NCBI GenBank assembly: GCA_001303125.1
Contig: LJNE01000001.1
Coordinates: forward strand, 17,737-81,736
DNA length: 64,000 bases
Direction of reading: 5' to 3'
From: Parcubacteria bacterium DG_74_1
Lineage (GTDB): Bacteria; Patescibacteriota; Minisyncoccia; Minisyncoccales; DG-74-1
Shown here: positions 14,166-55,330 of the stretch, one piece after another
How the letters are laid out: each line of letters opens with the position of its first letter
Position numbering within the stretch: the first letter of the stretch is position 1
Program-made: the position numbers and the translations under genes
Notes under the pieces: generated by a model
The model's input: only the letters and a program-made list of their open reading frames with translations
Told to the model about the DNA's origin: nothing
Databases searched by the model: none

Positions 14166-14324
14166 GATAGGACAGATAGAAGAGGCGAGGTAGGAAAGTA
14201 GTCGCGACGGCTTCGCCACATGCTTTAGCAATTTCAGGTTTTCAGTGAACTTCGCGCGCTTTGGCAGCTTAGGTCTCGCAAGGCGAGGTGCAAGGCAGGT
14301 AAGGCTTCTACAAATTCCAGCTGA

Positions 14325-14505: not shown

Positions 14506-14581
14506 GCGCCCGTAGTTCAATGGATAGAACGTCAGGTTGCGGACCTGAAGGTTAGAGGTTCGACTCCTCTCGGGCGCACCA
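14506..14581 (+). tRNA. tRNA-Arg(GCG), CCA encoded
   Basis: Acceptor GCGCCCG/CGGGCGC, anticodon stem TCAGG/CCTGA, loop TTGCGGA, T-loop TTCGACT, terminal ACCA. Confidence 0.85.
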
Positions 14582-14588
14582 ATAAATT

Positions 14589-16721
14589 ATGGATTTCTTC
14601 ACGCCTCTTGAAAAAATCCCACGGGTTGGTCCTCAATACCAAAAAAGATTAAAGAGATTGGGGATTAAAACCGTTGGGCATCTTCTTTTTCATTTTCCTC
14701 ACCGGTATGAGGATTTTTCGAATGTAATACCGATATCCGAAGTTAAAAGAGGTGAAATGGTTTCAGTCCAAGGAAAGATTTTGGATATCAAAAATATTAG
14801 AACTTTTAGGAAAAGAATGGTTTTAACCCAGGCCTTGGTTGGAGACACTAGCGGAAGCTTACAGGTAATTTGGTTTAACCAGCCTTATTTAATAAATAAT
14901 TTCAAAAAGGGGGATTTTCTTTTCTTGGCAGGAAAAATGAATCAGTCAAAAAGCGGAAGATACCTCTCTTCCCCCGCTTATGAAAAAATTTCGGATGAAC
15001 TCCGATTCAAGAATTCCGACTTGATTCATACGGGGAGATTAGTCCCGGTCTACCCCGAAACCGAAGGGCTTTCTTCGAGATGGCTAAGGTTTATAATAAG
15101 ACCACTCTTGGATCAGTTAAAAGATGAAGTTTCCGATCCTTTACCCGATTACCTGACAAAAAAATATAATTTTCTTGACTTGAAAGAGGCCCTCTGGCAA
15201 ATTCATTTTCCCGACTCTTTGAGATTAGCCCAGGAAAGCAAGAAAAGGTTTATCTTTGAGGAATTGTTTATTCTTTCTCTTTTCGTTTTAAGAGAAAGAA
15301 CGAAATTAGCCAAAGAAAAATCAGTAAGCGTGCCTTTAAATGTAGGGCTTGCCAAACAATTTGTAAAAAGTTTGCCTTTTCAGTTGACAGACGACCAGAA
15401 GAAAGCTTCTTGGCAAATATTAAAGGATTTGGAAAGGCCCTTTCCCATGAACCGACTTTTACAAGGAGATGTCGGTTCGGGGAAAACTGTAGTGGCCGCC
15501 ATGGCTGCTCTAAACACAGTTAAGACAGGTTATCAAATAGCTCTCCTTGCTCCGACCGAAATTCTAACCCAGCAGCACTACCAAACCTTTAATCTGCTTT
15601 TGAAAAAAAATAAAATAAGTATTGGTTTAATTACCGGCAAGGAAAATAAATTTAAAAATAAGAACATAAAAAGAAAAGGGCTGCTGAGGAAGACAAAAAG
15701 TGGAGAGGTTGATATTTTAATAGGAACTCACGCCTTGGTCCAAAAAGAAGTTAAGTTTGGGAAACTAGCTTTAGTTATTGTAGATGAACAACACCGTTTC
15801 GGAGTAGAACAAAGAGCGGGTCTCTGTCAGCAAAAAGACTTAATCCCCCACTTTCTTTCAATGACGGCCACCCCCATTCCCCGGACTCTTTCTCTGACAA
15901 TTTACGGCGACCTTGATCTTTCTCTGATTAAAGAGCTACCCAAAGGGAGAAAAAAAATAATTACGGAAATCATTCCTCCGGAAAAAAGAAACAAGGCCTA
16001 TAATTTTGTTAGAGAACAAATAAAAAAAGGCAGACAGGCTTTCGTTATCTGTCCAAGAATAGAACCCTCTGCCACTTTTCAAGAAAATAATTTTAATCAG
16101 ATTAATTTAGAAAAGCGCGATAGGGGGTGGGCCGAAGTGAAAGCAGCAAAGGAGGAGTATAAAAAACTTGCTGAAAAAATATTTCCCGAATTCAAGGTAG
16201 CCCTTCTTCATGGAAGGATGAAGAACGAAGAAAAGGAAAAAATAATGAAAGGATTTAAAAAAGGTAAAACAGATATTCTGGTCTCAACCTCGGTGATTGA
16301 AGTTGGCATTGATATAGCCAACGCCACGATTATGCTAATTGAAGGCGCTGATAAGTTTGGTTTAGCCCAGCTTCACCAGTTTAGAGGAAGGGTCGGCCGG
16401 GGCAAAGAGCAGTCCTTTTGTTTTCTTATGACCGACTTTCCTTCCCAAAAAACAAGCCAAAGATTGAGGGCTTTGATTAAATGTAACAACGGATTTGAGT
16501 TAGCAGAAAAGGATTTAGAAATCAGAGGACCGGGCGACTTCATTGGTCAACGACAGTGGGGCATACCAAATATTGCCATGGATGCTCTAAAAGACATCTC
16601 TTTGGTGGAAGAAACTCGCAAAGAGGCGAAGGAAATCTTAGAGAAAGACTCCCACCTTAAAAAGTATCCTCTCCTGAGAGAAAAACTTAGAGAGTTTAGG
16701 GAAAAAATACACCTTGAATGA
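14589..16721 (+). CDS. recG: ATP-dependent DNA helicase RecG
   Basis: 710 aa. N-terminal wedge/OB region, helicase motif I GDVGSGKT, DEQH box (VDEQHRFG), TATPIPRT motif. Confidence 0.9.
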   Translation: MDFFTPLEKIPRVGPQYQKRLKRLGIKTVGHLLFHFPHRYEDFSNVIPISEVKRGEMVSVQGKILDIKNIRTFRKRMVLTQALVGDTSGSLQVIWFNQPYLINNFKKGDFLFLAGKMNQSKSGRYLSSPAYEKISDELRFKNSDLIHTGRLVPVYPETEGLSSRWLRFIIRPLLDQLKDEVSDPLPDYLTKKYNFLDLKEALWQIHFPDSLRLAQESKKRFIFEELFILSLFVLRERTKLAKEKSVSVPLNVGLAKQFVKSLPFQLTDDQKKASWQILKDLERPFPMNRLLQGDVGSGKTVVAAMAALNTVKTGYQIALLAPTEILTQQHYQTFNLLLKKNKISIGLITGKENKFKNKNIKRKGLLRKTKSGEVDILIGTHALVQKEVKFGKLALVIVDEQHRFGVEQRAGLCQQKDLIPHFLSMTATPIPRTLSLTIYGDLDLSLIKELPKGRKKIITEIIPPEKRNKAYNFVREQIKKGRQAFVICPRIEPSATFQENNFNQINLEKRDRGWAEVKAAKEEYKKLAEKIFPEFKVALLHGRMKNEEKEKIMKGFKKGKTDILVSTSVIEVGIDIANATIMLIEGADKFGLAQLHQFRGRVGRGKEQSFCFLMTDFPSQKTSQRLRALIKCNNGFELAEKDLEIRGPGDFIGQRQWGIPNIAMDALKDISLVEETRKEAKEILEKDSHLKKYPLLREKLREFREKIHLE

Positions 16722-16733: not shown

Positions 16734-18251
16734 TTACCTTGTCTTTTCTGTTACCCAAAAACCTAAGGGTTTTCCCAATATTAATCTGGCCTGAGCTTCT
16801 AAAGCCGGAAGGGCACCAAAAAAAATTAAAGTGACCGGCAGCAAGAGCCACTGGAAGAACATGGAAAGATTTTTCAATTTAGAATAATTTTCGGGCCGCG
16901 GAGGCAGGAGTAAAAAAGAAATCGCCGCAGAAGTCAGCATGCCAACCATAGATAAGGTCATTAAATTGGCGATCAGCTTTGGCAGGTTATAAGCCAAGAG
17001 GGTAACGTTGAAAGTTCCTCCGCCTAAAACTAAGGGTAGCCAACCCAAAAAGAAAATCAAAAGAGCGGCTGCCGCCCAAGACCAGAATCCTTCAAAAAGA
17101 ATAAAGGTCTGACGAAATTTCTCAAAAAGAGGAATTTTTTTGTTTTTTAAAAAACCATAAAGCAAATAAGGAATATTCTCTGCCCCCCACGCCCAACGTC
17201 TTTGTTGCTTGTATTGGTTAACTATTGTTTTAATCAAGCTTTTAGCCATCACAGCATCCATAGAAACCGGATAATATAAAGGAATCACCCGGTAATCGCC
17301 ATCATAAGCCAAATAAGACTTCCAAAAGATTCTAGAGTCATCGGAAACCAGACTGGAGGGATAACCAACTTCTAAAAGAGTTTTAAAAGGAAGGGAGTGA
17401 GAAGAATAAGAGACCAATTGCTCGGGCCTTGCCTGCTGCATCATTTGCCAAAAGGTACCGGAAGTAGCAATGACCCGGGAAAAAGCCGGAGCCTGCCAAA
17501 TATTATTATTATAGATCGGGATGGGTTGATAAGAAGACCTTAAAGGATTTTCAGCGGTTAAGTAATGATAGGTCAAGCAGGCAAAATAGCAAGGATAGGG
17601 TCGAGTGTCAATATCAAAATTAGAAATAATAACTTTTTCCGGCGGTATCCCGAATTTCTCTAAAATTTTCTCTTTAGCTTCTTTTGCCGCCCAGGCAACA
17701 TTAGAACCCTTGCCGGCTATCTCACCCGAGATGTTTTGAGGATGTATTGTAATTAAAAAATGAAAAAAATTTTTAGAAAACTCCTTTTTAGCTTCCCGGG
17801 CTATTTTTTGAGCTTGCTCCCCCGCCCTTTCTTCAACGGCCAAAACGACAATTAATCTTTTCTTTGGGTATTCCGAATCAGCCAAGGCCTTAAAGGTAGT
17901 CCTTATTATTCCAAAATCCTCTTTATATGTTGGCAAGATTATCAGATGATAAATACTTTTCCAGTCGGGTAAATTATTCAATTTTTCTAGCCAGTCTATT
18001 TTTGTAACCTTTCTCATCTGCTGAAAACTGGCTACTTGATGAAAAGATAAATAAGCAACTTTTAATAGCCAATAAAGGGCGAAAATAATAACAAACAAAG
18101 CTACAGCAACAGGCGCCAGCCAGGACAAAATAAAAACTCCGACCAAAGCTCCCCACGAAAAGAGACCGGGAAGAATTTCAAAAAACCGATAGATAACTCT
18201 CTCTTTTTTATCCTTGAGATCTTGGGCCCGAGAAAGGTTAAGATAATCCAT
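16734..18251 (-). CDS. membrane-embedded family-2 glycosyltransferase, processive type (QxxRW)
   Basis: 505 aa. GT2 core (IILPTYKED..., FDID), QQRRWAWG motif and multiple TM segments at both ends. The ATG is 1 nt after the tRNA-Glu 3' end. Confidence 0.7.
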   Translation of the reverse strand: MDYLNLSRAQDLKDKKERVIYRFFEILPGLFSWGALVGVFILSWLAPVAVALFVIIFALYWLLKVAYLSFHQVASFQQMRKVTKIDWLEKLNNLPDWKSIYHLIILPTYKEDFGIIRTTFKALADSEYPKKRLIVVLAVEERAGEQAQKIAREAKKEFSKNFFHFLITIHPQNISGEIAGKGSNVAWAAKEAKEKILEKFGIPPEKVIISNFDIDTRPYPCYFACLTYHYLTAENPLRSSYQPIPIYNNNIWQAPAFSRVIATSGTFWQMMQQARPEQLVSYSSHSLPFKTLLEVGYPSSLVSDDSRIFWKSYLAYDGDYRVIPLYYPVSMDAVMAKSLIKTIVNQYKQQRRWAWGAENIPYLLYGFLKNKKIPLFEKFRQTFILFEGFWSWAAAALLIFFLGWLPLVLGGGTFNVTLLAYNLPKLIANLMTLSMVGMLTSAAISFLLLPPRPENYSKLKNLSMFFQWLLLPVTLIFFGALPALEAQARLILGKPLGFWVTEKTR

Positions 18252-18252
18252 G

Positions 18253-18327
18253 CGGCCCCAACCGGATTTGAACCGGTGTTACCAGGATGAAAACCTGACG
18301 TCCTAAGCCAGACTAGACGATAGGGCC
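18253..18327 (-). tRNA. tRNA-Glu(UUC)
   Basis: Acceptor GGCCCTA/TGGGGCC (one G-U pair), D-arm CGTCTAG typical of Glu, anticodon loop TTTTCAT. Confidence 0.9.
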
Positions 18328-18361: not shown

Positions 18362-18390
18362 TTGAAAAAAATCAAGGAAAAGCTTAAAAT
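18362..18390 (+). promoter_or_regulatory. sigma70-like promoter abutting the valS start codon
   Basis: TTGAAA (18362-18367), 17 nt, TAAAAT (18385-18390), 7 nt, then ATG 18398. The TTG start given in the ORF track is the -35 hexamer itself. Confidence 0.5.
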
Positions 18391-18397
18391 AAATTAT

Positions 18398-22089: not shown

Positions 22090-22117
22090 AAAGAGATTTT
22101 TCGACTCTTAAACAAAA

Positions 22118-22140
22118 ACCGTCATGAGAGACGGTTTTTG
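22118..22140 (+). terminator. intrinsic terminator after hsp20
   Basis: ACCGTC-atgaga-GACGGT followed by TTTTTG. Confidence 0.65.
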
Positions 22141-22232
22141 TGTCGTATTTTCGGCACTCAATCGATTTTTTATTATGTTCCTGTACAATTCGAACCCGCA
22201 ACCTTTTTGGGTCCCCGCCCATTTCTAGCTTG

Positions 22233-25669: not shown

Positions 25670-26188
25670 TTATTTAGCAAGTATCAAGCCTTGGTGGTAA
25701 AGACCAGCTCCAAACTCCTTTTCCAGTTCCAAACCAAGGCCTTTGGCTATTTCTTTTATTTCGTCAAAATCAAGCCATTCTATTTCCGGAGTTAAAGGAT
25801 TATCTTTTATCCAATCAGCTACTAAAATTTTACCGCCTTTTTTCAAAATTCTTTTGCCTTCTTCCAGAGCCTGTTTTTTATTTTCGCATTCAAACAATAA
25901 ATTGGTCATTAAAACCACGTCACAAGAATTAGACAGCAAGGTGGTTCCTTTTTCCACGTCAGCTTTTCTCAATTCAACGTTAAAAAGCTTTTCCATTTTT
26001 AACCTGGCCCTCAGGGCAGATAGGGGCTCTTCTAAGATATCTATAGCATAAACCTTGCCTTCTTCTAAGATTTTTGCCAGTGGTATTGTCCAGCCGCCCG
26101 AGCCTGAACCAAAGTCAGCCGCTGTCATGCTTTTGCGCAACTTCAAGCGCTTTAATATTTCTGGTGGATTTAAAAAATCTTGCATCAT
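25670..26188 (-). CDS. class I SAM-dependent methyltransferase
   Basis: Motif I DFGSGSGGWTIPLA and a Rossmann-type acidic loop YAIDI. Substrate not inferable. Confidence 0.75.
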   Translation of the reverse strand: MMQDFLNPPEILKRLKLRKSMTAADFGSGSGGWTIPLAKILEEGKVYAIDILEEPLSALRARLKMEKLFNVELRKADVEKGTTLLSNSCDVVLMTNLLFECENKKQALEEGKRILKKGGKILVADWIKDNPLTPEIEWLDFDEIKEIAKGLGLELEKEFGAGLYHQGLILAK

Positions 26189-26208
26189 TCTGTTTATTAT
26201 ATAACTGG

Positions 26209-28689
26209 CTATAGACAGGTTGCTGAGGCGACGTTGTCTCCCGTTTCCAATTTCATTATCCTTACTCCCTGAGTGGCCCGGTTCAACGTGGGGATTGATT
26301 TAATCTCAGTTCTGATAACCTGGCCTTTCTGGGAAATAACAATTAAATCTTCTTCTTCGCCAGTTAAAATTTTTGCTGCCGCTAAATTTCCGGTTTTAGG
26401 AGTGACATTAGCGGCTTTAATCCCAGACCCACCCCTCCCTTGGGTCTTGTATTCTTTAATATCCGTCCTTTTCCCGTAACCGTTTTCCGTGACTACCAAG
26501 AGATAGTTTTTATTTTCTAGTTTTTCTTTTCCGGTCCCTAGAATATCAACTGCCACTACTTCGTCTCCTTTTTTCAGTCTGATTCCCTTGATACCCGAAG
26601 CGGTTCTGCCCATTTCCCTGACTTCTTTTTCTTTAAACCTGATAGCTTGACCTCTTTTGGTTATGAGAACTATATCGTCCCGGCCACTAGTTTTCTGCAC
26701 GTTCTCAAGCGCATCTCCTTTTTTCAGCGTAATGGCAATCAATCCTGACCTCCTAATGCTTTCAAAATCTTTCAAGGGAGTTTTTTTAATTATACCATTT
26801 TTTGTTGCCATGACTAGATATTTCACTCCGTCCTCTTCGTCTCTCTTACTCAAGGTCCGCAAGCATAAAATTTTATCCTCGGAAGAAATTTCTAAAAAAT
26901 TCAAGAGTCCCCGACCCCTCGTTACTCTTTGACCTTCGGGAATTTCATAAACAGGCGTTCTGAAAACCTTTCCTGAGTCAGTAAAGAAAAGAAGGGAATC
27001 ATGAGTTTGAGCTAAAAGGAAATGCTCAACCACATCGTCTTGTAAAGTTTTCATTCCTAAAATTCCTCTACCTCCCCTCTTTTGGATTTTATAAGTTCTC
27101 GGATTAATCCTTTTAATATACCCGCCTTGAGTCAGCGTAATGATTGTCTCCTCTTGAGGAATTAAGTCCTCTTCGGCAATCTCACCAACTTTTTGGTAGT
27201 AAACCTTTGTTCTTCTGACATCGCCAAAATTTTCTTTTAAGGAAGAGAGCTCCTTTTTAATCACTTCTTTGATTTTTTGCGGACTTTTTAAAATGGCTGC
27301 CAATATTTTAATTCTGTCTCGCATTTGCTTCAATTCGTCTTCAATCTTTTTTCTTTCTAACCTAGCTAAAGCTGATAATTTCGTTTCCAAAATGGCATTA
27401 GCCTGAATTTCTGTCAACTTAAATCTTTTAATTAAATTGGTCTTAGCGTCTTCCCGGCTCTCTGATTTTTTTATAGTTTGAATAACTTCGTCAATTCTGG
27501 CAAGGCATTTATGAAGCCCTTCTAAAATATGAGTTCTTTCCTTAGCTTTTTCTAAATCAAATTTAGTTCTTCTGAAAACGATTTCTTTCCGATGGGAGAT
27601 AAAATAATTTAATAAATCAGGGAGATTTAATACCCGAGGCTGAATACCATCCACCAGGGCCAGAAGATTCAAATGAAAAGTTTTTTGCAAGTCGGAAAAC
27701 TTATAAAGCCTGTTTAAAATCTTTTGGGGATAGGCCTCTCTCTGCAAATCAATTACAATCCTCATCCCTTCTTTGTCTGATTCATCCCTAATGTCTTTAA
27801 TTCCCTCTACCCGTTTCTCTGAAACCAAATTAGCCAACTGCCCAATCAGAACTGATTTTTGGACCTGAAAAGGGATTTCAGAAATGATAATTTGTTGCCG
27901 GCCGCTTTTCTTCTGCACTATTGCTTCTGCTGTCCCACGGGTTAAAATTGGGCCCTTCCCTTGAGAATAGGCCTCGATAATCGCCTTTTGGTCAAAGATC
28001 TGGCCGGCCGTGGGAAAATCGGGACCCTTGATAAACTTAAATAAATCCTCGGTTTCGGCCTTGGGGTGATCAATTAAATAAATTAAGGCATCCGTTACTT
28101 CGGAAAGATTATGAGAAGGAATATTGGTAGCCATACCAACGGCAATCCCCAGAGAGCCGTTTAATAAAAGCTGGGGCAGCGGCGAGGGTAAAATAACAGG
28201 CTCTTTTCTTGTTCCGTCATAGTTATCGGTAAAATCAACCGTATTTTTTTCGATATCTCTAAGCATCTCCTCGCCAATTTTGGAAAGCCGCATCTCTGTA
28301 TAACGCATGGCAGCAAATTCTGAGGGATCATCAATCGAACCCATATTACCCTGGCCTTGGATCAAGGGGTATCTCAAAGAAAAATCCTGAGCCATTCTTA
28401 TTGCTGCATCATAAACCGCCTGGTCGCCATGGGGATGATAACGACCAAGACAGCTTCCTACTACGGTAGCCGATTTTCTAAACTTAGCATCATGTCTTAA
28501 CCCTTCTTCTAGCATTGTATATAAGATCCGACGGTGAACCGGCTTCAAACCGTCTCTTACATCAGGGAGGGCCCGGGAGATAATCACCGACATAGCATAA
28601 TCAATATAGCTCTCTCTCATTTCTTCAGTAATTTCCCGTGGTTTGACATGGCCAATAGAGCTATTAATTTTTTGTAGATTTTTTGGCAC
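26209..28689 (-). CDS. gyrA: DNA gyrase subunit A
   Basis: 826 aa, GTG start. The AAMRYTE active-site Tyr motif and C-terminal beta-pinwheel repeats are present. Confidence 0.95.
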
Positions 28690-29350: not shown

Positions 29351-29466
29351 ATATTTAAATTTTATCATGGCTATTGCCAAAAAACAAGAACTATTATAAA
29401 TTATAGATTAGGAAGAAGTTTCACTTTCTTTCTAGTCTTTACTTCCGTGAAGGGAGGCCCAATATT

Positions 29467-30522
29467 ATGAAAGAATTAATTGAAAGAGAAAATTTATCAA
29501 GGCCACCAAAAGTCGGGGAGATTATTGAGGGTAAAGTAGTCGCTAAAGAGTCAGGAAAATTGTTTTTAGATTTGGGACCGATTGGAACCGGAATAATTTA
29601 TGGAAAAGAATTTTACGAAGCGAGAGCCAAAATTAAAGATTTAAAAATTGGCGAGAGCCTCTTTGCTAAAGTAATCGGCTTGGAGAATGAAGAAGGCTAC
29701 ATCGAATTATCAATCAGTCAAGCAGGAATAGAGCTATCTTTTGAAGCTTTGAGACGAAAAAAAGAAGAAGGAGAAAAAATTTTAGTTAAAATCCTGGGAG
29801 CAAATAAGGGTGGCTTAATAAGCGAGGTAATGGGAATTCCGGCTTTTTTACCGGTTTCTCAACTGACACCCGAACATTATCCCCGAGTGGAAAAAGGAGA
29901 TACAGTAAAAATTCTAAGAGAGCTTCAGAAGTTTGTCGGCAAAGAGCTAGAGGCAAAAATTATAGATTTGTCTCAAAAAGGCGAGCAAATTATTTTATCG
30001 GAAAAAGCCAAAGAATCAGACAAGGTAAAAGAGATGCTAGCTAATTACAAAGTAGGTGATGTAGTTGAGGGCGAAATTACCGGTATCACCAACTTTGGCG
30101 CTTTTATGAAATTTGGCAAAGAAGAACTGGAAGGACTTATCCATATTTCAGAGCTAGACTGGAAAATCGTTGAAGACCCGACGGAAATTGTCAAAATTAG
30201 CGACAAGCTCCAAGCGAAAATCATTGATATCTCCGGAGACAAAGTTTCCCTTTCTCTAAAAGCGCTGAAAAAAGACCCCTGGTTAGACAGTGAAAAACAA
30301 TATAAAAAGGACGGAATTGTTTCGGGAAAAGTCACCAAGTTCAACCCCTTTGGTGCTTTCGTCCAAGTAAGCCCGGAAATCCAGGGGCTTTGCCATATCT
30401 CCGAATTCGGCTTAGAGAGAAGGATGAAAGAAAGATTAAAAATCGGCGAGGAATACGACTTCCAAATTTTAGAAATTAGACCCGAAGAACATCGAATGAG
30501 CTTAAAATTAGTGGAAAAATAA
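29467..30522 (+). CDS. rpsA: 30S ribosomal protein S1 (four S1 domains)
   Basis: Repeated S1 motifs (GEIIEGKV, GDVVEGEITGITNFGAF, GIVSGKVTKFNPFGAFV). SD GGGAGG lies 10 nt upstream. Confidence 0.85.
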   Translation: MKELIERENLSRPPKVGEIIEGKVVAKESGKLFLDLGPIGTGIIYGKEFYEARAKIKDLKIGESLFAKVIGLENEEGYIELSISQAGIELSFEALRRKKEEGEKILVKILGANKGGLISEVMGIPAFLPVSQLTPEHYPRVEKGDTVKILRELQKFVGKELEAKIIDLSQKGEQIILSEKAKESDKVKEMLANYKVGDVVEGEITGITNFGAFMKFGKEELEGLIHISELDWKIVEDPTEIVKISDKLQAKIIDISGDKVSLSLKALKKDPWLDSEKQYKKDGIVSGKVTKFNPFGAFVQVSPEIQGLCHISEFGLERRMKERLKIGEEYDFQILEIRPEEHRMSLKLVEK

Positions 30523-32571: not shown

Positions 32572-32643
32572 GGGCATGTAGTTCAGTGGTAGAACGCTAC
32601 TCTTATAAAGTAGAAGTCCCAGGTTCAATCCCTGGCATGCCCA
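32572..32643 (+). tRNA. tRNA-Ile(UAU)
   Basis: Acceptor GGGCATG/CATGCCC, anticodon stem CTACT/AGTAG, loop CTTATAA (anticodon TAT), T-loop TTCAATC. Starts 4 nt after the ftsH stop. Confidence 0.8.
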
Positions 32644-33318: not shown

Positions 33319-33532
33319 CAATCGCTTCTGCTCGGTAGAGACTCAGTATCTGTCGAAGATTCGGAGATCCAATCTTTCTGATTTAGAAAAGGTAACGGAA
33401 ACAGAAAAACCCTTTTTCCTAACAAAAGACTAGAGGGAAATACTGCCCCACCGGCGACGACGCTCTTTTAATGAAATAAGGCTGTATGGGTACCTGGCAC
33501 AGGTGTCTAGCGTAATTCTTAACCTTTTTCAA

Positions 33533-33605: not shown

Positions 33606-33656
33606 CAAAATAAAAAAAGGGGCAATCGTAGGCTCAAATCCTACACTACTTATATA

Positions 33657-33685
33657 TTGATTAATGACGAGTAATCAGTTAAAAT
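33657..33685 (+). promoter_or_regulatory. sigma70-like promoter for the tRNA-Phe/tRNA-Gly pair
   Basis: TTGATT, 17 nt, TAAAAT. The -10 element ends 8 nt before the mature tRNA-Phe 5' end. Confidence 0.4.
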
Positions 33686-33693
33686 TTTGATAG

Positions 33694-33849: not shown

Positions 33850-33878
33850 TTGACAACCTCTCTTGGTTGAGATATTAT
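33850..33878 (+). promoter_or_regulatory. consensus-like promoter TTGACA-N17-TATTAT
   Basis: TTGACA (33850-33855), 17 nt, TATTAT (33873-33878). The predicted start falls at the foot of the hairpin at 33884-33903. Confidence 0.4.
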
Positions 33879-33883
33879 AGTAC

Positions 33884-33903
33884 AACCCCCTGATGGGGGT
33901 TTT
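33884..33903 (+). terminator. hairpin AACCCCC-tgat-GGGGGTT plus T-run
   Basis: Could terminate the tRNA-Phe/Gly transcript or form a 5'-terminal stem-loop of the downstream mRNA. Confidence 0.4.
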
Positions 33904-33947
33904 AAGATGCCATCAAGCAAATTGGGAGCATACCGAATCCACTAAAT

Positions 33948-34442
33948 ATGACTACAAACCTAAAATATATCTCCATTTTCCTGGCAATATTCAGCTTGCT
34001 CGGCGTTCTTAAAATCGGCTCTCCTGAGGTCGAAATTAATTCTGAGGCTATTTTTAGTCAAAACTTAGAATTTTCCCAGCTTGCTACTATCCAAGACAAC
34101 AGCCTTTTGGCAGTTTCCAACCCTTCTAATCCTGATCCAGAAGTGTCTCAGAAAATAAACGTAGTAGTTACTGCCTACTCTTCCAGTCCATGGGAAACAT
34201 GGGGGGACCCTCTTATTACAGCGGCCGGCACCGGAGTGAGAGAAGGAGTTATTGCCAATAATCTTTTACCTTTCGGGACAAAAGTGCGTCTCCCAGAAAT
34301 TTACGGAGATAAGATCTTTGTGGTCGAAGACCGAATGAACAGCCGAGTTGGTTATTATCATGTTGATATCTGGCTTCCTTCTTATCGGGACGCTCTCAAT
34401 TTCGGCTCCAAAAGAACCTATATTGAAGTATTAGAAAACTAA
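33948..34442 (+). CDS. 3D-domain (RlpA/MltA-like double-psi beta-barrel) cell-wall protein
   Basis: N-terminal signal/TM. The C-terminal VVVTAYSSSPWETWGDP...GVIANNLLPFGTKVRL...VEDRMNS...HVDIW matches the 3D-domain pattern. Confidence 0.75.
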   Translation: MTTNLKYISIFLAIFSLLGVLKIGSPEVEINSEAIFSQNLEFSQLATIQDNSLLAVSNPSNPDPEVSQKINVVVTAYSSSPWETWGDPLITAAGTGVREGVIANNLLPFGTKVRLPEIYGDKIFVVEDRMNSRVGYYHVDIWLPSYRDALNFGSKRTYIEVLEN

Positions 34443-34462: not shown

Positions 34463-34500
34463 GCACCAAAAAACCACCTTTCGAGGTGGTTTTTTGGTGC
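34463..34500. terminator. perfect 16-bp bidirectional terminator hairpin
   Basis: GCACCAAAAAACCACC-tttcga-GGTGGTTTTTTGGTGC. Its right arm overlaps the encoded CCA end of tRNA-Leu(UAA). Confidence 0.75.
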
Positions 34501-34580
34501 CCGGGGAGGGAGTCGAACCCTCAAGAGCTTGCGCTCACAAGATTTTAAGTCTTGCGTGTATACCATTCCACCACCCGGGC
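34495..34580 (-). tRNA. tRNA-Leu(UAA), CCA encoded
   Basis: Class II. Acceptor GCCCGGG/CCCGGGC, anticodon loop CTTAAAA, terminal ACCA (34495-34498). Confidence 0.9.
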
Positions 34581-34586
34581 AAATTG

Positions 34587-34658
34587 AGGCCAGGGCGGGA
34601 ATTGCACCCACGTATAACTCTTTTGCAGAGAGTCGCCTTGCTACTTGGCTACCTGGCC
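34587..34658 (-). tRNA. tRNA-Cys(GCA) with atypical T-loop
   Basis: Acceptor GGCCAGG/CCTGGCC, anticodon loop CTGCAAA. The T-loop reads TGCAATT, with G where the near-universal U55 is expected. Confidence 0.8.
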
Positions 34659-34757
34659 AATTCGGCGATGTTATTCTATATTATTTTTAGCTCTTTTTCA
34701 ATTACCAAGCTCGCTAAAGGCAGTTAAAGTTAGGGAAGAATTTTTTTTATTTTCTTT

Positions 34758-34782
34758 CAATTGTTCTAAAATTTCTTCAACC
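34758..34782. repeat. degenerate echo of the rbfA 3' end (downstream copy)
   Basis: CAATTGTTCTAAAATTTCTTCAACC versus CAATCTCTCTAAAATCTCTTCAACC at 34838-34862, 21 of 25 identical. Confidence 0.6.
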
Positions 34783-34822
34783 ACTTAGTCCGGCAGTAGC
34801 GGGACGAAGAAGGAAAAGAGGC

Positions 34823-35164
34823 TCATTCATCCGACTTCAATCTCTCTAAAATCTCTTCAACCTTACCCGCTTCTCTGGTTTTTTTCTCTTCTAAAAACTT
34901 TATTCTGGGAATCGGTCTCATTTTTAGCCTTCGGTTTAATTTTTGCTGTAAAATATATATATTTCTATTTAAAATATCTAAAAATGTTTTCAATTTTTCT
35001 TCAGGCAAGGCTGAAACCCAAACATTAGTCTCCATTAAATTAGGCGAGGTCTCAACTCTGGTCACGGTCACTAAAACATTCGGGGGAAATTCAATTTCCC
35101 TTAGAAGAATCTGGCTTAATTCCCGTTTTATTAAAGCGTTGACTTGTTGAATACGTTTAGACAC
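34823..35164 (-). CDS. rbfA: ribosome-binding factor A
   Basis: 113 aa, GTG start. RIQQVNALIKRELSQIL and VTVTRVETSPNL are typical RbfA sequences. Confidence 0.9.
   Translation of the reverse strand: MSKRIQQVNALIKRELSQILLREIEFPPNVLVTVTRVETSPNLMETNVWVSALPEEKLKTFLDILNRNIYILQQKLNRRLKMRPIPRIKFLEEKKTREAGKVEEILERLKSDE
34838..34862. repeat. rbfA 3'-end segment duplicated downstream
   Basis: Encodes VEEILERLK on the minus strand. The partner copy at 34758-34782 would encode VEEILEQLK. Confidence 0.6.
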
Positions 35165-35234
35165 AACGGGGATTCAAAATGCAAAATGTAAATTTAAAAG
35201 TAACGGCGTGAAATCTAAAATTTTTAATTTTGAA

Positions 35235-36830
35235 TTAAGGCTCTCCCCTTCTTCGACCTTCCGTATAGGCTACTAATATGTCCCCCTCCTCAATCCTCAC
35301 ATCCCCCTCATATAATATGCCGCACTCTTCTCCTTTCCCTATTTGCTCAATGTCTTTTTTATTTCTCTGAAGATTGATTAATTTCCCTTGACCGAGAAGC
35401 ATTTCTCCCCGAAAAACTTCAGCTTGCGCCCCCTTTCTTACCTCTCCTTCAATTACTTTTCCCCCGACAATCTGGCGACTTTTTTCAGTCAAGAAAACAA
35501 CTAAGGCCTTCAGTTTTCCCAATTCTTCCCTGACCACTTCCGTTTCCGTAATTCTTTCCATAAATTTTCTAATCTCCTCAACCAAATCATAAATTATTTC
35601 AAAACTCATTATTCTGATTTTTTCTCTTTCGGCTAATTGTCTTGCCACCGGGCTAATTTTTACCCGAAAACCTAAGATCACAGCCTGTCCCCTACGGCTC
35701 TGGATGATTCCCCTTAAATCTTGGGCACTCTTTGCCAGCTTGACATCTGATTCGGTTATTTCGCCTGCTTCCGACTTCAAAATTCTTAAAATTAATTTTT
35801 CTTGAGGGAGACCTTTCAAAATCTCTTCAATAGCCTCGATGGAGCCTAAAACATCTGCTTTTAAAATCAGATTTAAAATTCGTCGACCAGAAGAAACCTC
35901 TGCCTCTCTAGTAAGATTTAGTACGGGTGCCTTTTTTTCAATACGAAGCTGCTCTTTAGCGCTTTCAATATCAGAGAATACTCTAAAATTTTCTCCAATT
36001 TTGGGAATCATCTCAAGGCCAACAACAATTGCCGGTTCTGCTGGCAGAATTTTCTCAACGTTTTTCCCCTGAAAATTCTCCAAAATTTTAATTTTTCCTA
36101 CAGCCGTCGGCGTTCCAACAATGTCGCCCACCTTAAGAATCCCTTGGTTTAAGATTAAAGTGACGGTCGGCCCCCTTTGAACATCTAGATAAGATTCAAT
36201 GATTACCCCCTCACCAGGTTTTTGAATATCGGCTCGCAGGTTTTCCATTTCCGCTACTAAGGTAACTAATTCTAAAAGCTCATTAATCCCCTGGCCGGTT
36301 TTAGCTGAAGTTAGAACTTGGGGGATTTTCCCTCCCAAATCCTCAACTAAAATTCCCTCTTTTTGAAGCTCTCTCTTTACTTTCTCCGGCTCAGCATCTG
36401 GTTTGTCAATCTTATTCAAGGCGACAATAAAAGGAACTTGAGCTTCTTTGATATGAGAGATTGCCTCTTTAGTTTGAGGCCTGATCCCTTCGGTGGCATC
36501 AATCACTAAGACGGCAATATCAGCCACCCTCGCTCCTCGTGATCTCATGGCCGAGAACGCCTCGTGCCCAGGGGTATCAATGAAAGTAATTTTTTTACCA
36601 TCCTTTTCAGCCTGATAAGCACCAATATGCTGAGTGATTCCACCGGCTTCTTTTTCGGTAATACTGACTCCCAATTCTTTAATGCTTTGAAGTAGACTTG
36701 ACTTACCATGGTCAATGTGCCCCAGGACTACTACTACCGGCGGCTTCGGCGCCAAGGGTCGCTGAAACTTCGTCTCATTTCCCACCTTGCTTGTCTTTGC
36801 CTTGCTCGATTTTTGAGTTATTTTTTCCAT
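35235..36830 (-). CDS. infB: translation initiation factor IF-2 (short form)
   Basis: G domain [27 protein letters not shown], then domains II-IV. Only ~30 aa precede the G domain. Confidence 0.9.
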
Positions 36831-37191
36831 ATTGCTTTTGGGCTATTTCTATGGCCTTTTTTTCTTCTTCTGATAATAAATACTCTGAACGACCATCTTT
36901 TATTGGCTTTCCATAAACCCTATTTTCCTCTCTGTTATATAAGCTGGTAATTACTATTCCAGAGTTGTTGCCATCTAAAATGGCGACTGAAAAGCTCTGG
37001 TCGCCGCCAATCCCTCCAAAGGGGTTAAACCTAACCATGCCGATTTTCTGCATATTGAAATTATTTTTCTTTCTTAAACTTTCTAATTCAGCGGAGATCC
37101 TTTCAAAATTTTCTTTTAAATCATTTAATTGACTTAAAGCCTCTTTTAGGTTTTCTGGTTCCTTTTTTTGTTTTTTGAAAAAGTTAATCAT
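36775..37191 (-). CDS. DUF4446-like protein
   Basis: Start at MINFFKK (ATG 37191), 2 nt after the tRNA-Ser 3' end. A coiled coil is followed by VRFNPFGGIGGDQSFSVAILD...VITSLYNREENRVYGKP. The family name is recalled from memory. Confidence 0.65.
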   Translation of the reverse strand: MINFFKKQKKEPENLKEALSQLNDLKENFERISAELESLRKKNNFNMQKIGMVRFNPFGGIGGDQSFSVAILDGNNSGIVITSLYNREENRVYGKPIKDGRSEYLLSEEEKKAIEIAQKQYGKNNSKIEQGKDKQGGK

Positions 37192-37193
37192 AG

Positions 37194-37276
37194 CGGAGGA
37201 GGTGGGACTCGAACCCACAAGTCCTTGTGGACACCGCGTTTCGAGTGCGGCGGAATACCGATTATCCGACTCCTCC
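37194..37276 (-). tRNA. tRNA-Ser(CGA)
   Basis: Class II. Acceptor GGAGGAG/CTCCTCC, anticodon loop CTCGAAA (A31-C39 mismatch), variable arm GTCCACAAGGAC. Confidence 0.85.
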
Positions 37277-37282
37277 TTCTAT

Positions 37283-38266
37283 TTAAGCTGTCGTTATTTT
37301 AATTAAATTTTTAACTGTTTTCGTAGGCGGAACCTTTTTGTAAATTACTTTATAAATCTCATTAATCATTGGTAGGTCCACTTTATATTTTCTGCCTAAC
37401 TTATATAAGGCCCAGGTATTATTGAAGCCCTCGACCGTAATTTTTCCTTCTCGGATGTCTTGTCTCATCTTATCAGCATCTAGATAAATACTTTTGCCAA
37501 ACTGGAAATTTCGGGATAAGGGGTCACTCGAGGTCAAAACTAAATCACCAAAACCTGCTGGCCCTAAAAATGTTTTCTCTTTTGCCCCTATTGCTTTCCC
37601 AAGCTCTATCATTTCTTTTAAGCCGGACTTAATTAATTCTGGTCGATTTTGTTTATTGTCCAGGCCCAGGTTTGCTACTTCAGTTAGACTAATGCCAATA
37701 GCCAAAGAATTTTTTACAGCACCGGCTAACTGAACTCCGATTAAATCAGTAGTAGTTAAAATCTGGAAAGCTTTAATTCGAAAAAGTTCTTTTATTTTCT
37801 TTAATAATAATCTATTCTCTGAGGCAATTACTTCTTCTGCCGGCTTCCCCCTGATGATTTGTCTAGCGAATCCCGGACCGGACAAGTGGGCGTAAGGAAT
37901 CTTCCCTAAAATTTCTTCGATAACTTGAGAGGGCAGCTTCAGTGTTTCTTTCTCTATCCCTTTGGCAATTCCCAAGAGAGGCGGCAAGTTTTTGAATTCT
38001 TTCAGTTTCAGCAAAGTTCTTCGTAAATTAAAAGAGGGAGAGGCAATAATAATTAATTCAGCAGCTTGAATTGTCTTTACTAGATCAGGGGAAATAAGAA
38101 TTTTTTGAGGAATTTTAATTTCTGGTAATTTTTCATTGTTTCGGGATCTATTGATTTTCAAAGCCAGTTTTCTATTTTCATACCAAAACTTAACCTTATT
38201 TCTTCTGCTTAAAATAATCCCCAAAGCAGTTCCCCAGGCTCCCGGCTCTAAAATTGCAACTCTCAT
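37283..38266 (-). CDS. gpsA: NAD(P)H-dependent glycerol-3-phosphate dehydrogenase
   Basis: Start at MRVAILEPGAWGTALG (ATG 38266), 8 nt after tRNA-Ala. GVQLAGAVKN and GDLVLT motifs are present. The first Gly of the usual GxGxxG is Glu here. Confidence 0.85.
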   Translation of the reverse strand: MRVAILEPGAWGTALGIILSRRNKVKFWYENRKLALKINRSRNNEKLPEIKIPQKILISPDLVKTIQAAELIIIASPSFNLRRTLLKLKEFKNLPPLLGIAKGIEKETLKLPSQVIEEILGKIPYAHLSGPGFARQIIRGKPAEEVIASENRLLLKKIKELFRIKAFQILTTTDLIGVQLAGAVKNSLAIGISLTEVANLGLDNKQNRPELIKSGLKEMIELGKAIGAKEKTFLGPAGFGDLVLTSSDPLSRNFQFGKSIYLDADKMRQDIREGKITVEGFNNTWALYKLGRKYKVDLPMINEIYKVIYKKVPPTKTVKNLIKITTA

Positions 38267-38274
38267 ATATCTTG

Positions 38275-38348
38275 TGGACCCGATGGGGCTTGAACCCACA
38301 ACCTCCTCAATGCCATTGAGGCGCGCTAGCCAATTGCGCCACGGGCCC
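38275..38348 (-). tRNA. tRNA-Ala(GGC)
   Basis: Acceptor GGGCCCG/CGGGTCC with the G3-U70 identity pair. Anticodon loop ATGGCAT. Confidence 0.9.
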
Positions 38349-38547
38349 AGTGGTAATAAAAAATTTCTCGCTCGTCTCTCCTAGCACTTCGTGCCAATGC
38401 TCGGCTTCACCTCGCTTCAGCTCGCTCTTTAGAAGACCTCGGTTCTAACGCCCCTTGGGCTGTTTTCTTAGACAGAGAAACCGTAGGGTTTCCCCGGCCC
38501 CCTTCCGATTTGGGGTCTCTGTAAAAATAATTTCGCTTACAAGTTTG

Positions 38548-38619
38548 TGCCCCTGATAGGAATTGAACCTATATCCAGAGCTTAGGAGTCTCTTGTTCTA
38601 TCCATTGAACTACAGGGGC
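38548..38619 (-). tRNA. tRNA-Arg(CCU)
   Basis: Acceptor GCCCCTG/CAGGGGC, anticodon loop CTCCTAA. Its backbone is close to that of tRNA-Arg(UCU) at 41798-41872. Confidence 0.85.
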
Positions 38620-38676
38620 AATATAAAAAATTTCTAATTTTCAATTTCAATGTTGTTAATATAGCAAAAATATTGC

Positions 38677-38705
38677 TTGCTGGCAACAATCTCTAATGGT
38701 AGAAT
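38677..38705 (+). promoter_or_regulatory. promoter with extended -10 abutting the HtrA-family protease start codon
   Basis: TTGCTG (38677-38682), 17 nt, TGG-TAGAAT (38697-38705), 6 nt, then ATG 38712. An in-frame TAG at 38700 excludes an upstream start. Confidence 0.5.
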
Positions 38706-38711
38706 ATACTA

Positions 38712-39755
38712 ATGCTGGAGAAATCACCCATTATCGAAGTGGCAAAAAAAGCTTGCCCAGCTGTCATTACCATTGTCATCTCAAAAGATCTGCCAAAAGT
38801 TGAGGGCTTTTATTTTTTTCCTTACGGCCCAGGTCAAAAATTTATTTTCCCCAAATTAAAAAAGGGCAGAGAAAAAACTAAGATTGGCGGTGGTTCAGGT
38901 TTTATTGTTTCAAGCGAGGGCTATGTCGTTACTTGCAGCCATGTGGTTGGCGACCCAGAAGCAGAATATGCTGTTATTCTAGACCCCAAGCGCAAATATC
39001 CAGCCAAGATCTTGGCTAAAGATCCTCTAGTTGATTTAGCTGTTTTAAAAATCAACGATAAAAGTTTGCCTTCTCTGGAATTGGCAGATTCTGACAGGAT
39101 TGAGCTCGGAGAAACAGTGGTCGCTATCGGCAATCCTTTAGGAGAATTTGATGACACCTTATCATCAGGAATCGTTTCTGGTTTATCAAGAAAAATTACT
39201 GCCTATAGCGGCTTACCCTTAAAGGCAACCAGCTTAAGAGGACTAATCCAGACAGATGCCGCTATTAATCCGGGTAATTCCGGGGGTCCCCTAGTTAATA
39301 TGGATGGAATGGTAATCGGGGTCAATACGGCCCAGGTCTTAGGGGCTCAAAATATTGGCTTTGCTATACCGATAAATTATGCCAGAAATATTTTGGAAGA
39401 AGTAAGGAAATATGGAAAAATCAAGAGACCATTCTTAGGGGTAAGATATGTGATTTTGAATCCAGAAATTGCCAAAGCCAACAAGCTTCCAGTAGATTAT
39501 GGAGCTTTAATTGTCAGAGAAAGTCTAGGAGAAAGCGCCATAGTAAAAGGGTCAGCGGCCGCCAAGGGCGGGTTGAAAGAATACGATATCATTCTGGAAA
39601 GTAATGGAGAAAAGATTACTGAAGAAAGCCCCTTGGCTGATTTTTTAGCTAAACAGAGAATCGGCGGCGAAATCAATTTCAAGGTTCTACGAGAAGGAAA
39701 AGAAATAAATCTAAAAGTAAAACTAGAAGAGAAAAAATCAAAGACAACCTTCTAA
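38712..39755 (+). CDS. HtrA/DegP-family serine protease with one PDZ domain, no N-terminal signal or anchor
   Basis: Trypsin-like core (TCSHVV, DLAVLK, GNSGGPL) plus a C-terminal PDZ domain. The protein starts directly at the conserved region. Confidence 0.85.
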   Translation: MLEKSPIIEVAKKACPAVITIVISKDLPKVEGFYFFPYGPGQKFIFPKLKKGREKTKIGGGSGFIVSSEGYVVTCSHVVGDPEAEYAVILDPKRKYPAKILAKDPLVDLAVLKINDKSLPSLELADSDRIELGETVVAIGNPLGEFDDTLSSGIVSGLSRKITAYSGLPLKATSLRGLIQTDAAINPGNSGGPLVNMDGMVIGVNTAQVLGAQNIGFAIPINYARNILEEVRKYGKIKRPFLGVRYVILNPEIAKANKLPVDYGALIVRESLGESAIVKGSAAAKGGLKEYDIILESNGEKITEESPLADFLAKQRIGGEINFKVLREGKEINLKVKLEEKKSKTTF

Positions 39756-52310: not shown

Positions 52311-52317
52311 TATAATA

Positions 52318-52326
52318 ATTATACCA
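52318..52326 (-). promoter_or_regulatory. extended -10 element (TGGTATAAT) 7 nt upstream of the kinase ATG
   Basis: Minus-sense TGGTATAAT-tattata-ATG. No -35 element recognised. Confidence 0.3.
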
Positions 52327-52415
52327 TTGACGAAAAGAAAATAAAATGATAGCAAACAATTACGGGCATGGTGCAATGGTTAATATATACGTTTCTTGCT
52401 CGCCAAAATTTTAAA

Positions 52416-52486: not shown

Positions 52487-52553
52487 AATTAGAAAATTTA
52501 GAGGAGTGAAGGAGCGTAGAATTCCAAGTTCGAGTCTCGGTGCCCCGGCTAAT

Positions 52554-55324: not shown

Positions 55325-55330
55325 ATATTA

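Follow-up and report, generated by a model that had tools for sequence, protein, structure and literature searches.

Start codons flush with tRNA genes around infB and rbfA in a Parcubacteria genome point to a tRNA-punctuated operon without Shine-Dalgarno sequences

In animal mitochondrial DNA, tRNA genes lie zero to a few nucleotides from the coding sequences of one strand, and RNase P and RNase Z, cutting a polycistronic precursor at the tRNA ends, set the ends of mRNAs that have short leaders and no Shine-Dalgarno (SD) sequence, an arrangement described by Ojala, Montoya and Attardi as tRNA punctuation. Operons that mix tRNA and protein genes are also found in Escherichia coli, where metY(tRNA-fMet)-rimP-nusA-infB-rbfA-truB and thrU-tyrU-glyT-thrT-tufB are co-transcribed and then separated endonucleolytically, and leaderless mRNAs, with the AUG at or beside the 5′ end and no SD sequence, are made in Deinococcus and from lambda cI. 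Leaderless mRNA translation is known in Actinobacteria such as Mycobacterium too (PMC4633059), and the anti-SD motif CCTCCT was detected in only 48% of the 16S genes of Parcubacteria (Tsurumaki et al. 2022, RNA 28:1041, PMC9297842). Here we analyse a 64,000-nt stretch of Parcubacteria bacterium DG_74_1 (contig LJNE01000001.1; the whole stretch is called the window below), whose minus strand carries gpsA and a DUF4446-infB-rbfA gene string with start codons directly behind tRNA genes. We regard the locus as a bacterial, class-wide, SD-free version of tRNA-punctuated expression, to which an uncatalogued RNA family adds an extra lead.

The likeness to mitochondria, to which a preliminary description of this DNA had pointed, holds for the 1-8-nt gaps between tRNA and coding sequence, the use of one strand and the lack of SD sequences, and would extend to the polycistronic precursor and its cleavage if the route proposed below is right. 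Unlike mitochondrial DNA, however, the genome is a free bacterial one, has ordinary sigma70-like promoters and closes the unit with an intrinsic terminator; only some junctions are punctuated while others run from coding sequence to coding sequence, several tRNAs are clustered instead of one being interspersed per gene, and the stops (gpsA TAA, ftsH, rplS) are complete and need no completion by polyadenylation. The locus appears to work like mitochondrial punctuation, but the complete stops, the partial punctuation and the predicted nature of the RNA-level steps keep us from filing it as a member of that family.

Among bacterial mixed operons the closest is that of metY, with a tRNA at its head and infB and rbfA inside, rather than the tufB operon first offered as a precedent; co-transcription followed by endonucleolytic separation would be common to both E. 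coli operons and our locus. The metY-nusA-infB operon is treated in PMC6511841. In contrast, E. coli reading frames behind tRNAs follow spacers of tens to more than 100 nt with a canonical SD, against 1-8 nt and no SD here, and unlike in the metY operon, nusA lies ~20 kb away and the DUF4446 gene stands ahead of infB. In a loose sense the locus appears to be a bacterial mixed tRNA-mRNA operon, its genes lying on the same strand without promoter or terminator between them. The messages proposed here would share the AUG at or beside the 5′ end and the lack of an SD with classical leaderless mRNAs, but whereas the latter are primary transcripts with a 5′-triphosphate, the former would be processed, with a 5′-monophosphate and 1-8 extra nt. 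The Parcubacteria without anti-SD belong to the same lineage, and the window is their gene-side counterpart, with no SD ahead of genes; tRNA-to-start abutment, leaderless promoters and the structured element treated below are not described in that report (PMC9297842). Our literature search, incomplete in coverage, found no bacterial tRNA punctuation, tRNA-abutting starts or leaderless initiation in Patescibacteria.

tRNA ends and start codons

In the window, tRNA genes were called with ARAGORN and Rfam, which agree on 20, five of them in the region studied, and protein identities were assigned with Pfam, which confirmed gpsA, DUF4446, IF-2, RbfA, RecG, FtsH and L19. Along the minus strand, a promoter-like site is followed in turn by tRNA-Arg(CCU), 198 nt, tRNA-Ala, 8 nt, gpsA, 6 nt, tRNA-Ser(CGA), 2 nt, DUF4446, infB, rbfA, 164 nt, tRNA-Cys, tRNA-Leu(UAA) and terminator (Table 1); ARAGORN, Rfam, Pfam and direct reading of the sequence concur on the gene order that had been claimed. 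The discriminator A of tRNA-Ala at 38275 is followed by the 8 nt CAAGATAT (38267-38274) and the gpsA ATG at 38266, gpsA ends with a complete TAA at 37283 and tRNA-Ser(CGA) begins 6 nt on, at 37276, and the discriminator G of the latter at 37194 is followed by CT (37192-37193) and the DUF4446 ATG at 37191. With tRNA-Glu before the 'GT2' gene and tRNA-Arg(GCG) before recG, the tRNA-to-ATG gaps of gpsA, DUF4446, GT2 and recG are 8, 2, 1 and 7 nt, exactly as first reported, and the stops of ftsH, rplS and gpsA, said to lie 4-7 nt ahead of a tRNA, do so at 4, 7 and 6 nt (ftsH stop 32567, tRNA-Ile start 32572; rplS stop 33228, tRNA-Leu(GAG) start 33236; both stop codons complete). CCA is encoded only in the terminal tRNA-Leu and is lacking from the unit's other four tRNAs, each of which is followed by something within it. 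The label 'GT2' finds no Pfam hit in the 505-aa protein itself, though PF13632 is found in some homologues.

Promoter-like sites were scored as consensus matches and are treated as candidates only; on the minus strand, good ones are confined to the regions ahead of tRNA-Arg(CCU) and tRNA-Cys. That of tRNA-Arg(CCU) lies back-to-back with the leaderless-type promoter of a divergent htrA-like gene (TGgTAGAAT, 6 nt, ATG 38712). At the other end of the unit, the terminator hairpin stands where it had been placed, at 34463-34500, with a stem of 17 rather than 16 bp, and no convincing terminator precedes it on the minus strand, as had been stated. None of 200 shuffles folds equally well; the hairpin is common to the minus-strand unit and the convergent plus-strand gene at 33948-34442, and the 3′ end of tRNA-Leu(UAA), GCACCA, participates in its stem. 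The 56-nt overlap of infB with DUF4446 holds if infB starts at ATG 36830, with GTG 36785 as an alternative that leaves the start ambiguous; the overlap is retained in the closest relatives, L001 and L002, and most others align only from residue 18-29.

The start codons next to tRNAs are backed by homology. Residue 3 of gpsA corresponds to position 2 of its Pfam profile and the GxGxxG motif begins at residue 7, residue 11 of recG corresponds to position 6 of the wedge-domain profile (Pfam), the DUF4446 homologues (850 hits) are nearly all 120-147 aa long with the conserved N-terminus M[FI]NFFKK, and the 'GT2' homologues share the N-terminus M(xx)DYLNLSRAQDLK, conserved from residue 1. Three DUF4446 homologues in the databases carry an N-terminal extension, MPEWLNG..GVQIPLPPP, that is translated tRNA, and seven 'GT2' homologues carry one, ..HGFDSRQGRM, that is the translated 3′ end of tRNA-Glu with the same 1-nt junction, so the tRNA abuts the gene in those genomes too; such N-termini are artefacts of gene callers that extend open reading frames (ORFs) into abutting tRNAs. 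The locus is not an assembly artefact: it recurs with unchanged gene calls on 13 contigs assembled from at least four samples, and independent gene callers picked identical starts on these contigs. JGI samples 3300001751, 3300027901 and 3300001854 contain the identical locus, and a 100% identical protein names the organism as Parcubacteria bacterium DG_74_1. As far as homology can tell, the abutting start codons appear to be right, the alignments of homologues backing them over starts corrected further downstream.

A GTDB scan with the DUF4446 alignment, one genome per species, returned 80 loci, all from Patescibacteria of the Paceibacteria/Nealsonbacteria type, to which ARAGORN and tblastn were applied. 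Most of these species-level genomes have the block tRNA-Ser(CGA)-DUF4446-infB-rbfA-tRNA-Cys-tRNA-Leu(UAA), usually headed by tRNA-Arg(CCU) and tRNA-Ala(GGC), with gpsA between Ala and Ser in ~9 loci, and tRNA-Ser(CGA) lies upstream of DUF4446 in 63/80. Among 64 loci, the tRNA-Ser end is separated from the DUF4446 ATG by 0-9 nt in 21, 12-16 nt in 4, 21-47 nt in 14, 53-98 nt in 12 and more than 98 nt in 13, and gpsA abuts tRNA-Ala (0-10 nt) in seven relatives (L004, L005, L007, L008, L027, L038 and L079). When the distances were tabulated for every tRNA of the window and the 80 loci, 44 of the 168 same-strand tRNA-to-ORF junctions measured ≤10 nt, a closeness beyond chance. Divergent junctions, which need a promoter, measured ≤40 nt in only 1 case of 53, and tRNA-Gly(GCC), behind which a strong promoter sits in the window, is never less than 33 nt from the next gene. 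The recurrent abutments include Ser(CGA)/DUF4446, Ala/gpsA, Glu/GT2 and Val(GAC)/next ORF, and the 1-nt Glu-to-GT2 and 0-2-nt Ser-to-DUF4446 junctions persist across proteins only 55-75% identical. Far from being lost in relatives, abutment is a recurrent feature of the class, at no fewer than seven junction types.

An SD-like motif, defined as GGAG, GAGG or AGGA at -18..-4 of the start, precedes 1 of the 58 window genes, against 9.8% at random positions; the sole case is the S1 gene (rpsA-like, 351 aa), with GGGAGG ahead of the ATG at 29440-29467 (+), and the frequency in related loci (9-11%) equals background. The earlier remark that the tRNA junctions have no room for an SD is true, but the junctions are not special in this respect. 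The lack of SD in the window matches the anti-SD loss reported for about half of Parcubacteria (PMC9297842), and on the related contig L127 (1-100) the 16S 3′ end reads ..GGATCACTACATTTT (longer reading ..GGATCACTACATTTTAAATT), without CCTCC. SD-based start prediction is useless in this lineage.

Another signal precedes many of the starts. In leuS, TTGAAA-17-TAAAAT is followed by 7 nt and the ATG, and leuS, the htrA-like gene, clpP, pilM and others have a TATAAT-like -10 box 5-8 nt ahead of the ATG (Table 1). A leaderless-type signal, taken as a match of at least 5/6 to TATAAT ending 3-12 nt ahead of the start, was found in 17 of the 58 window genes, and TANNNT hexamers peak 6-7 nt upstream of window starts, the signal being weaker in the pooled relatives. 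This layout suggests that the genome has a substantial set of truly leaderless primary transcripts, so its ribosome plausibly handles 5′-terminal AUGs. At gpsA, DUF4446, GT2 and recG the layout is absent, its position being taken by tRNA sequence, and the last 40 nt of the upstream tRNAs hold no -10 or -35 box at a usable distance.

The proposed expression route

The preliminary description proposed that tRNA excision from a co-transcribed precursor releases short-leader mRNAs, which are translated without an SD. Its observation is confirmed and its interpretation partly supported, and on balance we favour it as the best model; we take the whole chain, from mixed operon to SD-free translation, to be moderately probable. 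Co-transcription by itself, which we strongly infer, commands more confidence, since a gap of 1-8 nt has no room for a promoter and the upstream tRNAs lack a -10 box, which leaves co-transcription with the tRNAs as the only plausible route. Transcription would begin ahead of tRNA-Arg(CCU), from the promoter-like site there, and proceed for ~4.2 kb to the hairpin past tRNA-Leu(UAA), with a possible secondary promoter ahead of tRNA-Cys (34701-34673), from which tRNA-Cys and tRNA-Leu(UAA) may also be transcribed separately. RNase P would cut at the tRNA 5′ ends, giving a gpsA message that ends 6 nt past its stop, and an RNase Z-type cut right after the discriminator of the CCA-less tRNAs would leave gpsA mRNA with a leader of ≤8 nt and, past tRNA-Ser, the DUF4446-infB-rbfA mRNA with one of ≤2 nt; by the same logic, processing of tRNA-Glu would give GT2 a leader of 1 nt and tRNA-Arg(GCG) would be removed from in front of recG. 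The near-leaderless 5′-monophosphate mRNAs would be translated by an SD-independent initiation that seemingly serves all genes throughout the lineage, including leaderless mRNAs from promoters with a -10 box 5-8 nt before the ATG. We infer, in particular, the cleavage positions, the acting enzymes and the identity of the processed species with the translated one.

Other points favour this chain. tRNAs need excision to function, and the RNase Z of Bacillus subtilis cleaves CCA-less tRNAs immediately past the discriminator. Translational coupling cannot serve cistrons that lie behind an untranslated tRNA, from which no ribosome comes. As an acceptor stem that is still folded 1-2 nt ahead of the AUG would keep the latter from being threaded into the 30S subunit, the processed RNA is the likely template. 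An RNase Y gene is present in the window (Pfam).

Several points weigh against the route. Its transcript ends, cleavage sites and translated species are all predicted. The search of the 64-kb window found no gene for RNase P, RNase Z or a CCA-adding enzyme, and a strict promoter scan upstream of tRNA-Glu and tRNA-Arg(GCG) found no site above threshold. Classical RNase Z is inhibited on CCA-encoding tRNA, and the recG junction follows just such a substrate. RNase J is retained by bacteria of the candidate phyla radiation (PMC12641178), and 5′-monophosphate mRNAs would be its substrates. Among relatives, the Ser-to-DUF4446 spacers take continuous lengths from 0 to >100 nt without SD, and canonical promoters are not enriched in the 38 long ones (4 sites vs 3.0 in shuffles), so a 5′-terminal AUG is tolerated but not demonstrably required or selected. 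Finally, 26% of tRNA-to-coding-sequence junctions measure ≤10 nt vs ~51% of those between two coding sequences, the former thus being looser, as simple compaction predicts. The strict -35/-10 scan of the long spacers led us to reject independent leaderless promoters as a general rule in the long-spacer relatives; a -10 box 7-8 nt ahead of the DUF4446 ATG was seen only in L076 and, by eye, in L051 and L077.

The spacer continuum and the tighter junctions between coding sequences favour a reading in which deletion bias has removed intergenic DNA, abutment is a by-product of compaction without functional punctuation, and co-transcription is incidental. SD-less ribosomes would then start at any unstructured A/U-rich AUG region, whether the tRNA is cut or uncut, and tRNA processing and mRNA translation would be independent or even competing fates of the transcript. 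The generality of SD absence, not limited to tRNA junctions, agrees with this, as do the coding 5′ ends, which are A-rich and look unstructured (e.g. AUGAUUAACUUUUUCAAAAAACAAAAAAAGG for DUF4446). Judging from ribosome structure, however, an AUG that follows a stable acceptor stem of 7 bp at 1-2 nt would be unfit for the P site unless ~12 nt of upstream RNA were threaded through the exit channel, and the tRNA would first need to be unfolded or removed. Moreover, tRNA excision is required anyway, so the short-leader product would necessarily arise, and the tight Glu-GT2 and Ser-DUF4446 junctions persist through the protein divergence given above. We consider compaction without punctuation, the chief rival of our model, rather unlikely. 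An error of annotation, by which the true starts lie further downstream or a promoter is embedded in the upstream tRNA gene, is very improbable: in-frame DUF4446 ATGs with an AT-rich stretch ahead do occur at 37053 and 37038, but the Pfam DUF4446 homology spans residues 8-117, all DUF4446 homologues begin at the same motif, the gpsA and GT2 N-termini are conserved as described, and the promoter scan, like the search for a TANNNT box at usable distance in the tRNA 3′ parts, found nothing.

How ribosomes find starts after the loss of SD and anti-SD is an open question in bacteria, among which the Patescibacteria make up a very large share that is hardly cultivated, and the locus with its 80 relatives offers a concrete model in which mRNA 5′ ends would be made by tRNA excision beside primary leaderless transcripts. 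If tRNA punctuation as proposed here is true, tRNA processing enzymes would directly control how essential proteins, IF2, RbfA and GpsA among them, are made, and genome reduction in free bacteria would be able to give rise to 'mitochondrial' punctuation.

A structured RNA between tRNA-Arg and tRNA-Ala

The spacer between tRNA-Arg(CCU) and tRNA-Ala, described earlier as 199 nt long and GC-rich, is present but measures 198 nt with 48% GC and holds a conserved structured RNA that had been missed. In a BLAST search, 38 nt of the spacer matched L032 just ahead of the DUF4446 ATG, at the place taken by tRNA-Ser in other species, and metagenome contigs contain the 22-mer TCGGAAGGGGGYCGGGGAAACC at least 120 times without mismatch. 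The element is about 150-210 nt long (~170 nt in the window), with the core AUCGGAAGGGGGYCGGGGAAACC and the 3′ tail ..UAUUACCACU, and aligned copies read ..CAUCCCAnAUCGGAAGGGGGUCGGGGAAACCCUUCGGUUUCCCCGUnUAGGAAAA..UUAGAAACCGAGGGUUUCUAAAGAGCGAGCCC..(variable hairpins)..GGGCGAGCGACUAACUUnGUAUUACCACU. On a MAFFT alignment not fitted to structure, a five-helix model has 94% of cells paired and nine compensatory pairs; no shuffle equals it, and slid controls reach 32-55% paired. Single-sequence folding of the spacer gave z = 0.17, the structure emerging only from the comparative alignment. Searched with the covariance model (R1), the window yields a single copy, of full length (152.3 bits, E = 3e-48), which ends exactly at +1 of tRNA-Ala. 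As the Arg(CCU)-Ala junction measures 0-15 nt in 27/37 relatives and is filled only in the window, this copy is an insertion.

Rfam 15 gave no gathering-threshold hit for the element in the window or in six related loci, and permissive Rfam scans of three copies returned chance-level hits only (E > 0.3, ≤21 bits). Known Rfam families were rejected for the spacer, matching by eye to their conserved motifs having failed as well. ARAGORN found no tmRNA or tRNA in the spacer, the Rfam tRNA model was likewise negative on the element, and the 5′ and 3′ ends of the element do not pair; nor was covariation seen by eye for pairing of the tail with its own 5′ flank or with internal loops. A 16S rRNA fragment was rejected because no rRNA hit was obtained around six copies, and the resemblance of the motif ..UUACCACU.. 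to E. coli h44 and to the ..AUCACUA tail of the L127 16S was left as coincidence. That tail, AUCACUA, also loosely resembles the ACCACUA at the 3′ end of the element. No description of the element in Patescibacteria was found in the literature searched, the coverage of which was incomplete.

The idea that the element is single-copy per genome was rejected by multi-copy metagenome contigs, with five copies in 8 kb of L186 and four in L113. An ATG stands immediately past ..CCACU in 37 of the 63 copies that have a downstream ORF and within 3 nt in 47, and a sense ORF starts at the model end in 39 of the 48 full-length copies whose downstream sequence is long enough. The start codon met by the end of the element is usually that of a highly expressed gene; among the genes that follow are those for ribosomal proteins (S12, S7, S3, S8, S11, S13, S14, S19, S20, L10, L14, L15, L16 and L32) and for SecY, RpoA, NusG, GroEL, ClpB, GlyRS, Hsp20 and DUF4446. 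Some copies follow a promoter, a clear one, TTGACA-17-TGaTAAAAT, in L127, but an own promoter for every copy was rejected, as about one third begin 0-10 nt past the stop of an upstream same-strand ORF and no -10 peak appears at a fixed distance.

The element shows that these bacteria repeatedly place a folded RNA right ahead of the AUG, in keeping with the general idea of the earlier proposal. It may act as a signal for processing by which the AUG is exposed, as a leader for ribosome entry or stabilisation in a lineage without SD, or it may be a selfish insertion tolerated only there. Its place ahead of a tRNA in the window and behind a 16S gene in L127 argues against a purely translational role. 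That it is purely selfish is made less likely by its bias to the sense orientation and by its flush junctions. We tentatively suggest a wider structured-RNA punctuation in anti-SD-less Parcubacteria, in which starts lie flush with an upstream tRNA or with an element ending in ..UACCACU directly before the AUG, and cleavage at the fold boundary, or its recognition, would provide a real or virtual 5′-terminal AUG for leaderless-type initiation. If true, bacteria would have their own counterpart of mitochondrial punctuation, and the element would represent a new class of RNA for processing or ribosome entry.

The element might instead be small, selfish and mobile, inserting into the intergenic junctions of operons that are transcribed, with no role in the expression of its neighbours. 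Such behaviour would account for the junction filled only in the window, for copy numbers from ~1 per 64 kb (window) to 5 per 8 kb (L186), for a degenerate L186 copy inverted relative to its operon, and for the variety of its positions, ahead of ORFs or of a tRNA and also behind a 16S gene. It sits poorly with the strong sense bias, with 3′ ends flush with the ATG (0 nt in 37/63), with sequence and structure conserved through compensatory changes, and with enrichment ahead of genes for ribosomal proteins, chaperones and RNA polymerase, sites from which selection usually removes selfish insertions; neither a transposase nor a duplicated target site was seen. We therefore regard purely selfish spread as doubtful.

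Plant mitochondrial t-elements are tRNA-like structures that define mRNA ends, and as non-tRNA structured RNAs at cistron boundaries they are a possible analogy to the ~170-nt element. Unlike them, the element described here has no tRNA-like fold, and its ends are unpaired. It is perhaps the larger lead and could be a new processing signal, ribozyme or ribosome-entry element.

Further features of the window and its relatives

Table 1. Positions of the features of the minus-strand unit, of other junctions and promoter boxes in the window, and of element copies in related contigs (numbered by contig)
Feature	Position	Strand	Remarks
Promoter-like site TTGCCA-17 nt-(TG)cTATATT	38658..38686	-	10/12 match, extended TG; candidate unit start
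tRNA-Arg(CCU)	38547..38619	-	no encoded CCA; ARAGORN, Rfam
AT-rich linker between tRNA-Arg(CCU) and structured element	38523-38546	-	24 nt
Structured RNA element	38349..38522	-	sole window copy; covariance model
tRNA-Ala(GGC)	38275..38348	-	G3:U70 pair, no encoded CCA; ARAGORN, Rfam
gpsA, NAD-dependent glycerol-3-phosphate dehydrogenase	37283..38266	-	327 aa; Pfam PF01210 + PF07479
tRNA-Ser(CGA)	37194..37276	-	no encoded CCA; ARAGORN, Rfam
DUF4446-family gene	36775..37191	-	138 aa; PF14584, E = 1.8e-35
infB, short IF2	35235..36830	-	531 aa if ATG 36830; Pfam GTP_EFTU + IF-2
rbfA	34823..35164	-	113 aa, GTG start; PF02033, residues 4-106 = profile 1-105
Promoter-like site TTGAAA-17-TAGAAT, rbfA to tRNA-Cys spacer	34673..34701	-	10/12 match
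tRNA-Cys(GCA)	34587..34658	-	no encoded CCA; ARAGORN, Rfam
tRNA-Leu(UAA)	34495..34580	-	encoded CCA; ARAGORN, Rfam
Intrinsic terminator hairpin, bidirectional	34463..34500	-	17-bp stem, -29.3 kcal/mol, z = -5.08
tRNA-Glu(UUC)/GT2-like junction	18249..18327	-	tRNA 18253-18327, one C, ATG 18251-18249 of 505-aa GT2-like membrane protein
tRNA-Arg(GCG)/recG junction	14506..14591	+	encoded CCA ending 14581, 7 nt ATAAATT, recG ATG 14589
-10 boxes ending 5-8 nt before ATG	18362-18398, 38690-38712	+	
-10 boxes ending 5-8 nt before ATG	55324-55350, 13571-13600, 26188-26210, 52310-52335	-	
Element copy in L032	836-1001		
Element copy in L178	1676-1860		
Element copy in L127	about 264-451		
Element copies in L186	1391-1607, 2047-2209, 4385-4542, 7700-8019		

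The Ser(CGA)-DUF4446 spacers of eight relatives (L003, L004, L008, L015, L021, L034, L039 and L040) contain 1-4 tandem AT-rich hairpins of ~24 nt each, of the form TCAATGAATTTTCAATTCATTTCA or AATAAATTTTTAATTTATTTCA, at about 3900-4000 in the 8-kb loci; the last ends 3 nt (TCA) before the DUF4446 ATG, another folded RNA directly upstream of a start. In the window, the inter-tRNA spacers 33320-33532 (213 nt) and 14167-14322 (156 nt) are long, with 43-51% GC, and often measure 4-10 nt in relatives; the first is partly conserved in L001 (80% over 77 nt), and neither has an Rfam hit or a match to the element model R1. Other spacers adjoining tRNAs (33607-33693, 22100-22231 and 52487-52553) hold T-arm/acceptor-like pieces, e.g. 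..GTAGGCTCAAATCCTAC.., ..GCGGGTTCGAATTGTAC.. and ..CCAAGTTCGAGTCTCGGTGCCCC.., which are possibly decayed tRNA genes, ARAGORN and Rfam calling no tRNA there.

Directly past the ftsH stop lies a tRNA-Ile with the anticodon UAU (gene TAT; 32572-32643, +), kept in L019, L029, L058, L060 and L061, which suggests decoding of AUA without the usual route through lysidine-modified tRNA-Ile(CAU) and TilS. Right past tRNA-Gly(GCC), the strong promoter TTGACA-17-TATTAT (33850-33948, +) is followed by a leader of ~60 nt, unusually long for this genome, with a CCCCCTGATGGGG hairpin, and then by a 164-aa ORF that has no Pfam match.

On the minus strand, the 3′ end of rbfA (GTTGAAGARATTTTAGA..) is repeated just past the rbfA stop, in the spacer 34659-34822 (34759-34784 vs 34839-34864), and in many relatives the genuine end of rbfA is matched by this repeat; either an 80-nt duplication or a small GC-rich insertion has replaced the C-terminus that RbfA had ancestrally. 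The widely conserved linkage of nusA and infB is broken, nusA lying at 57337-58560, and in this lineage infB is always preceded by the DUF4446 gene instead.

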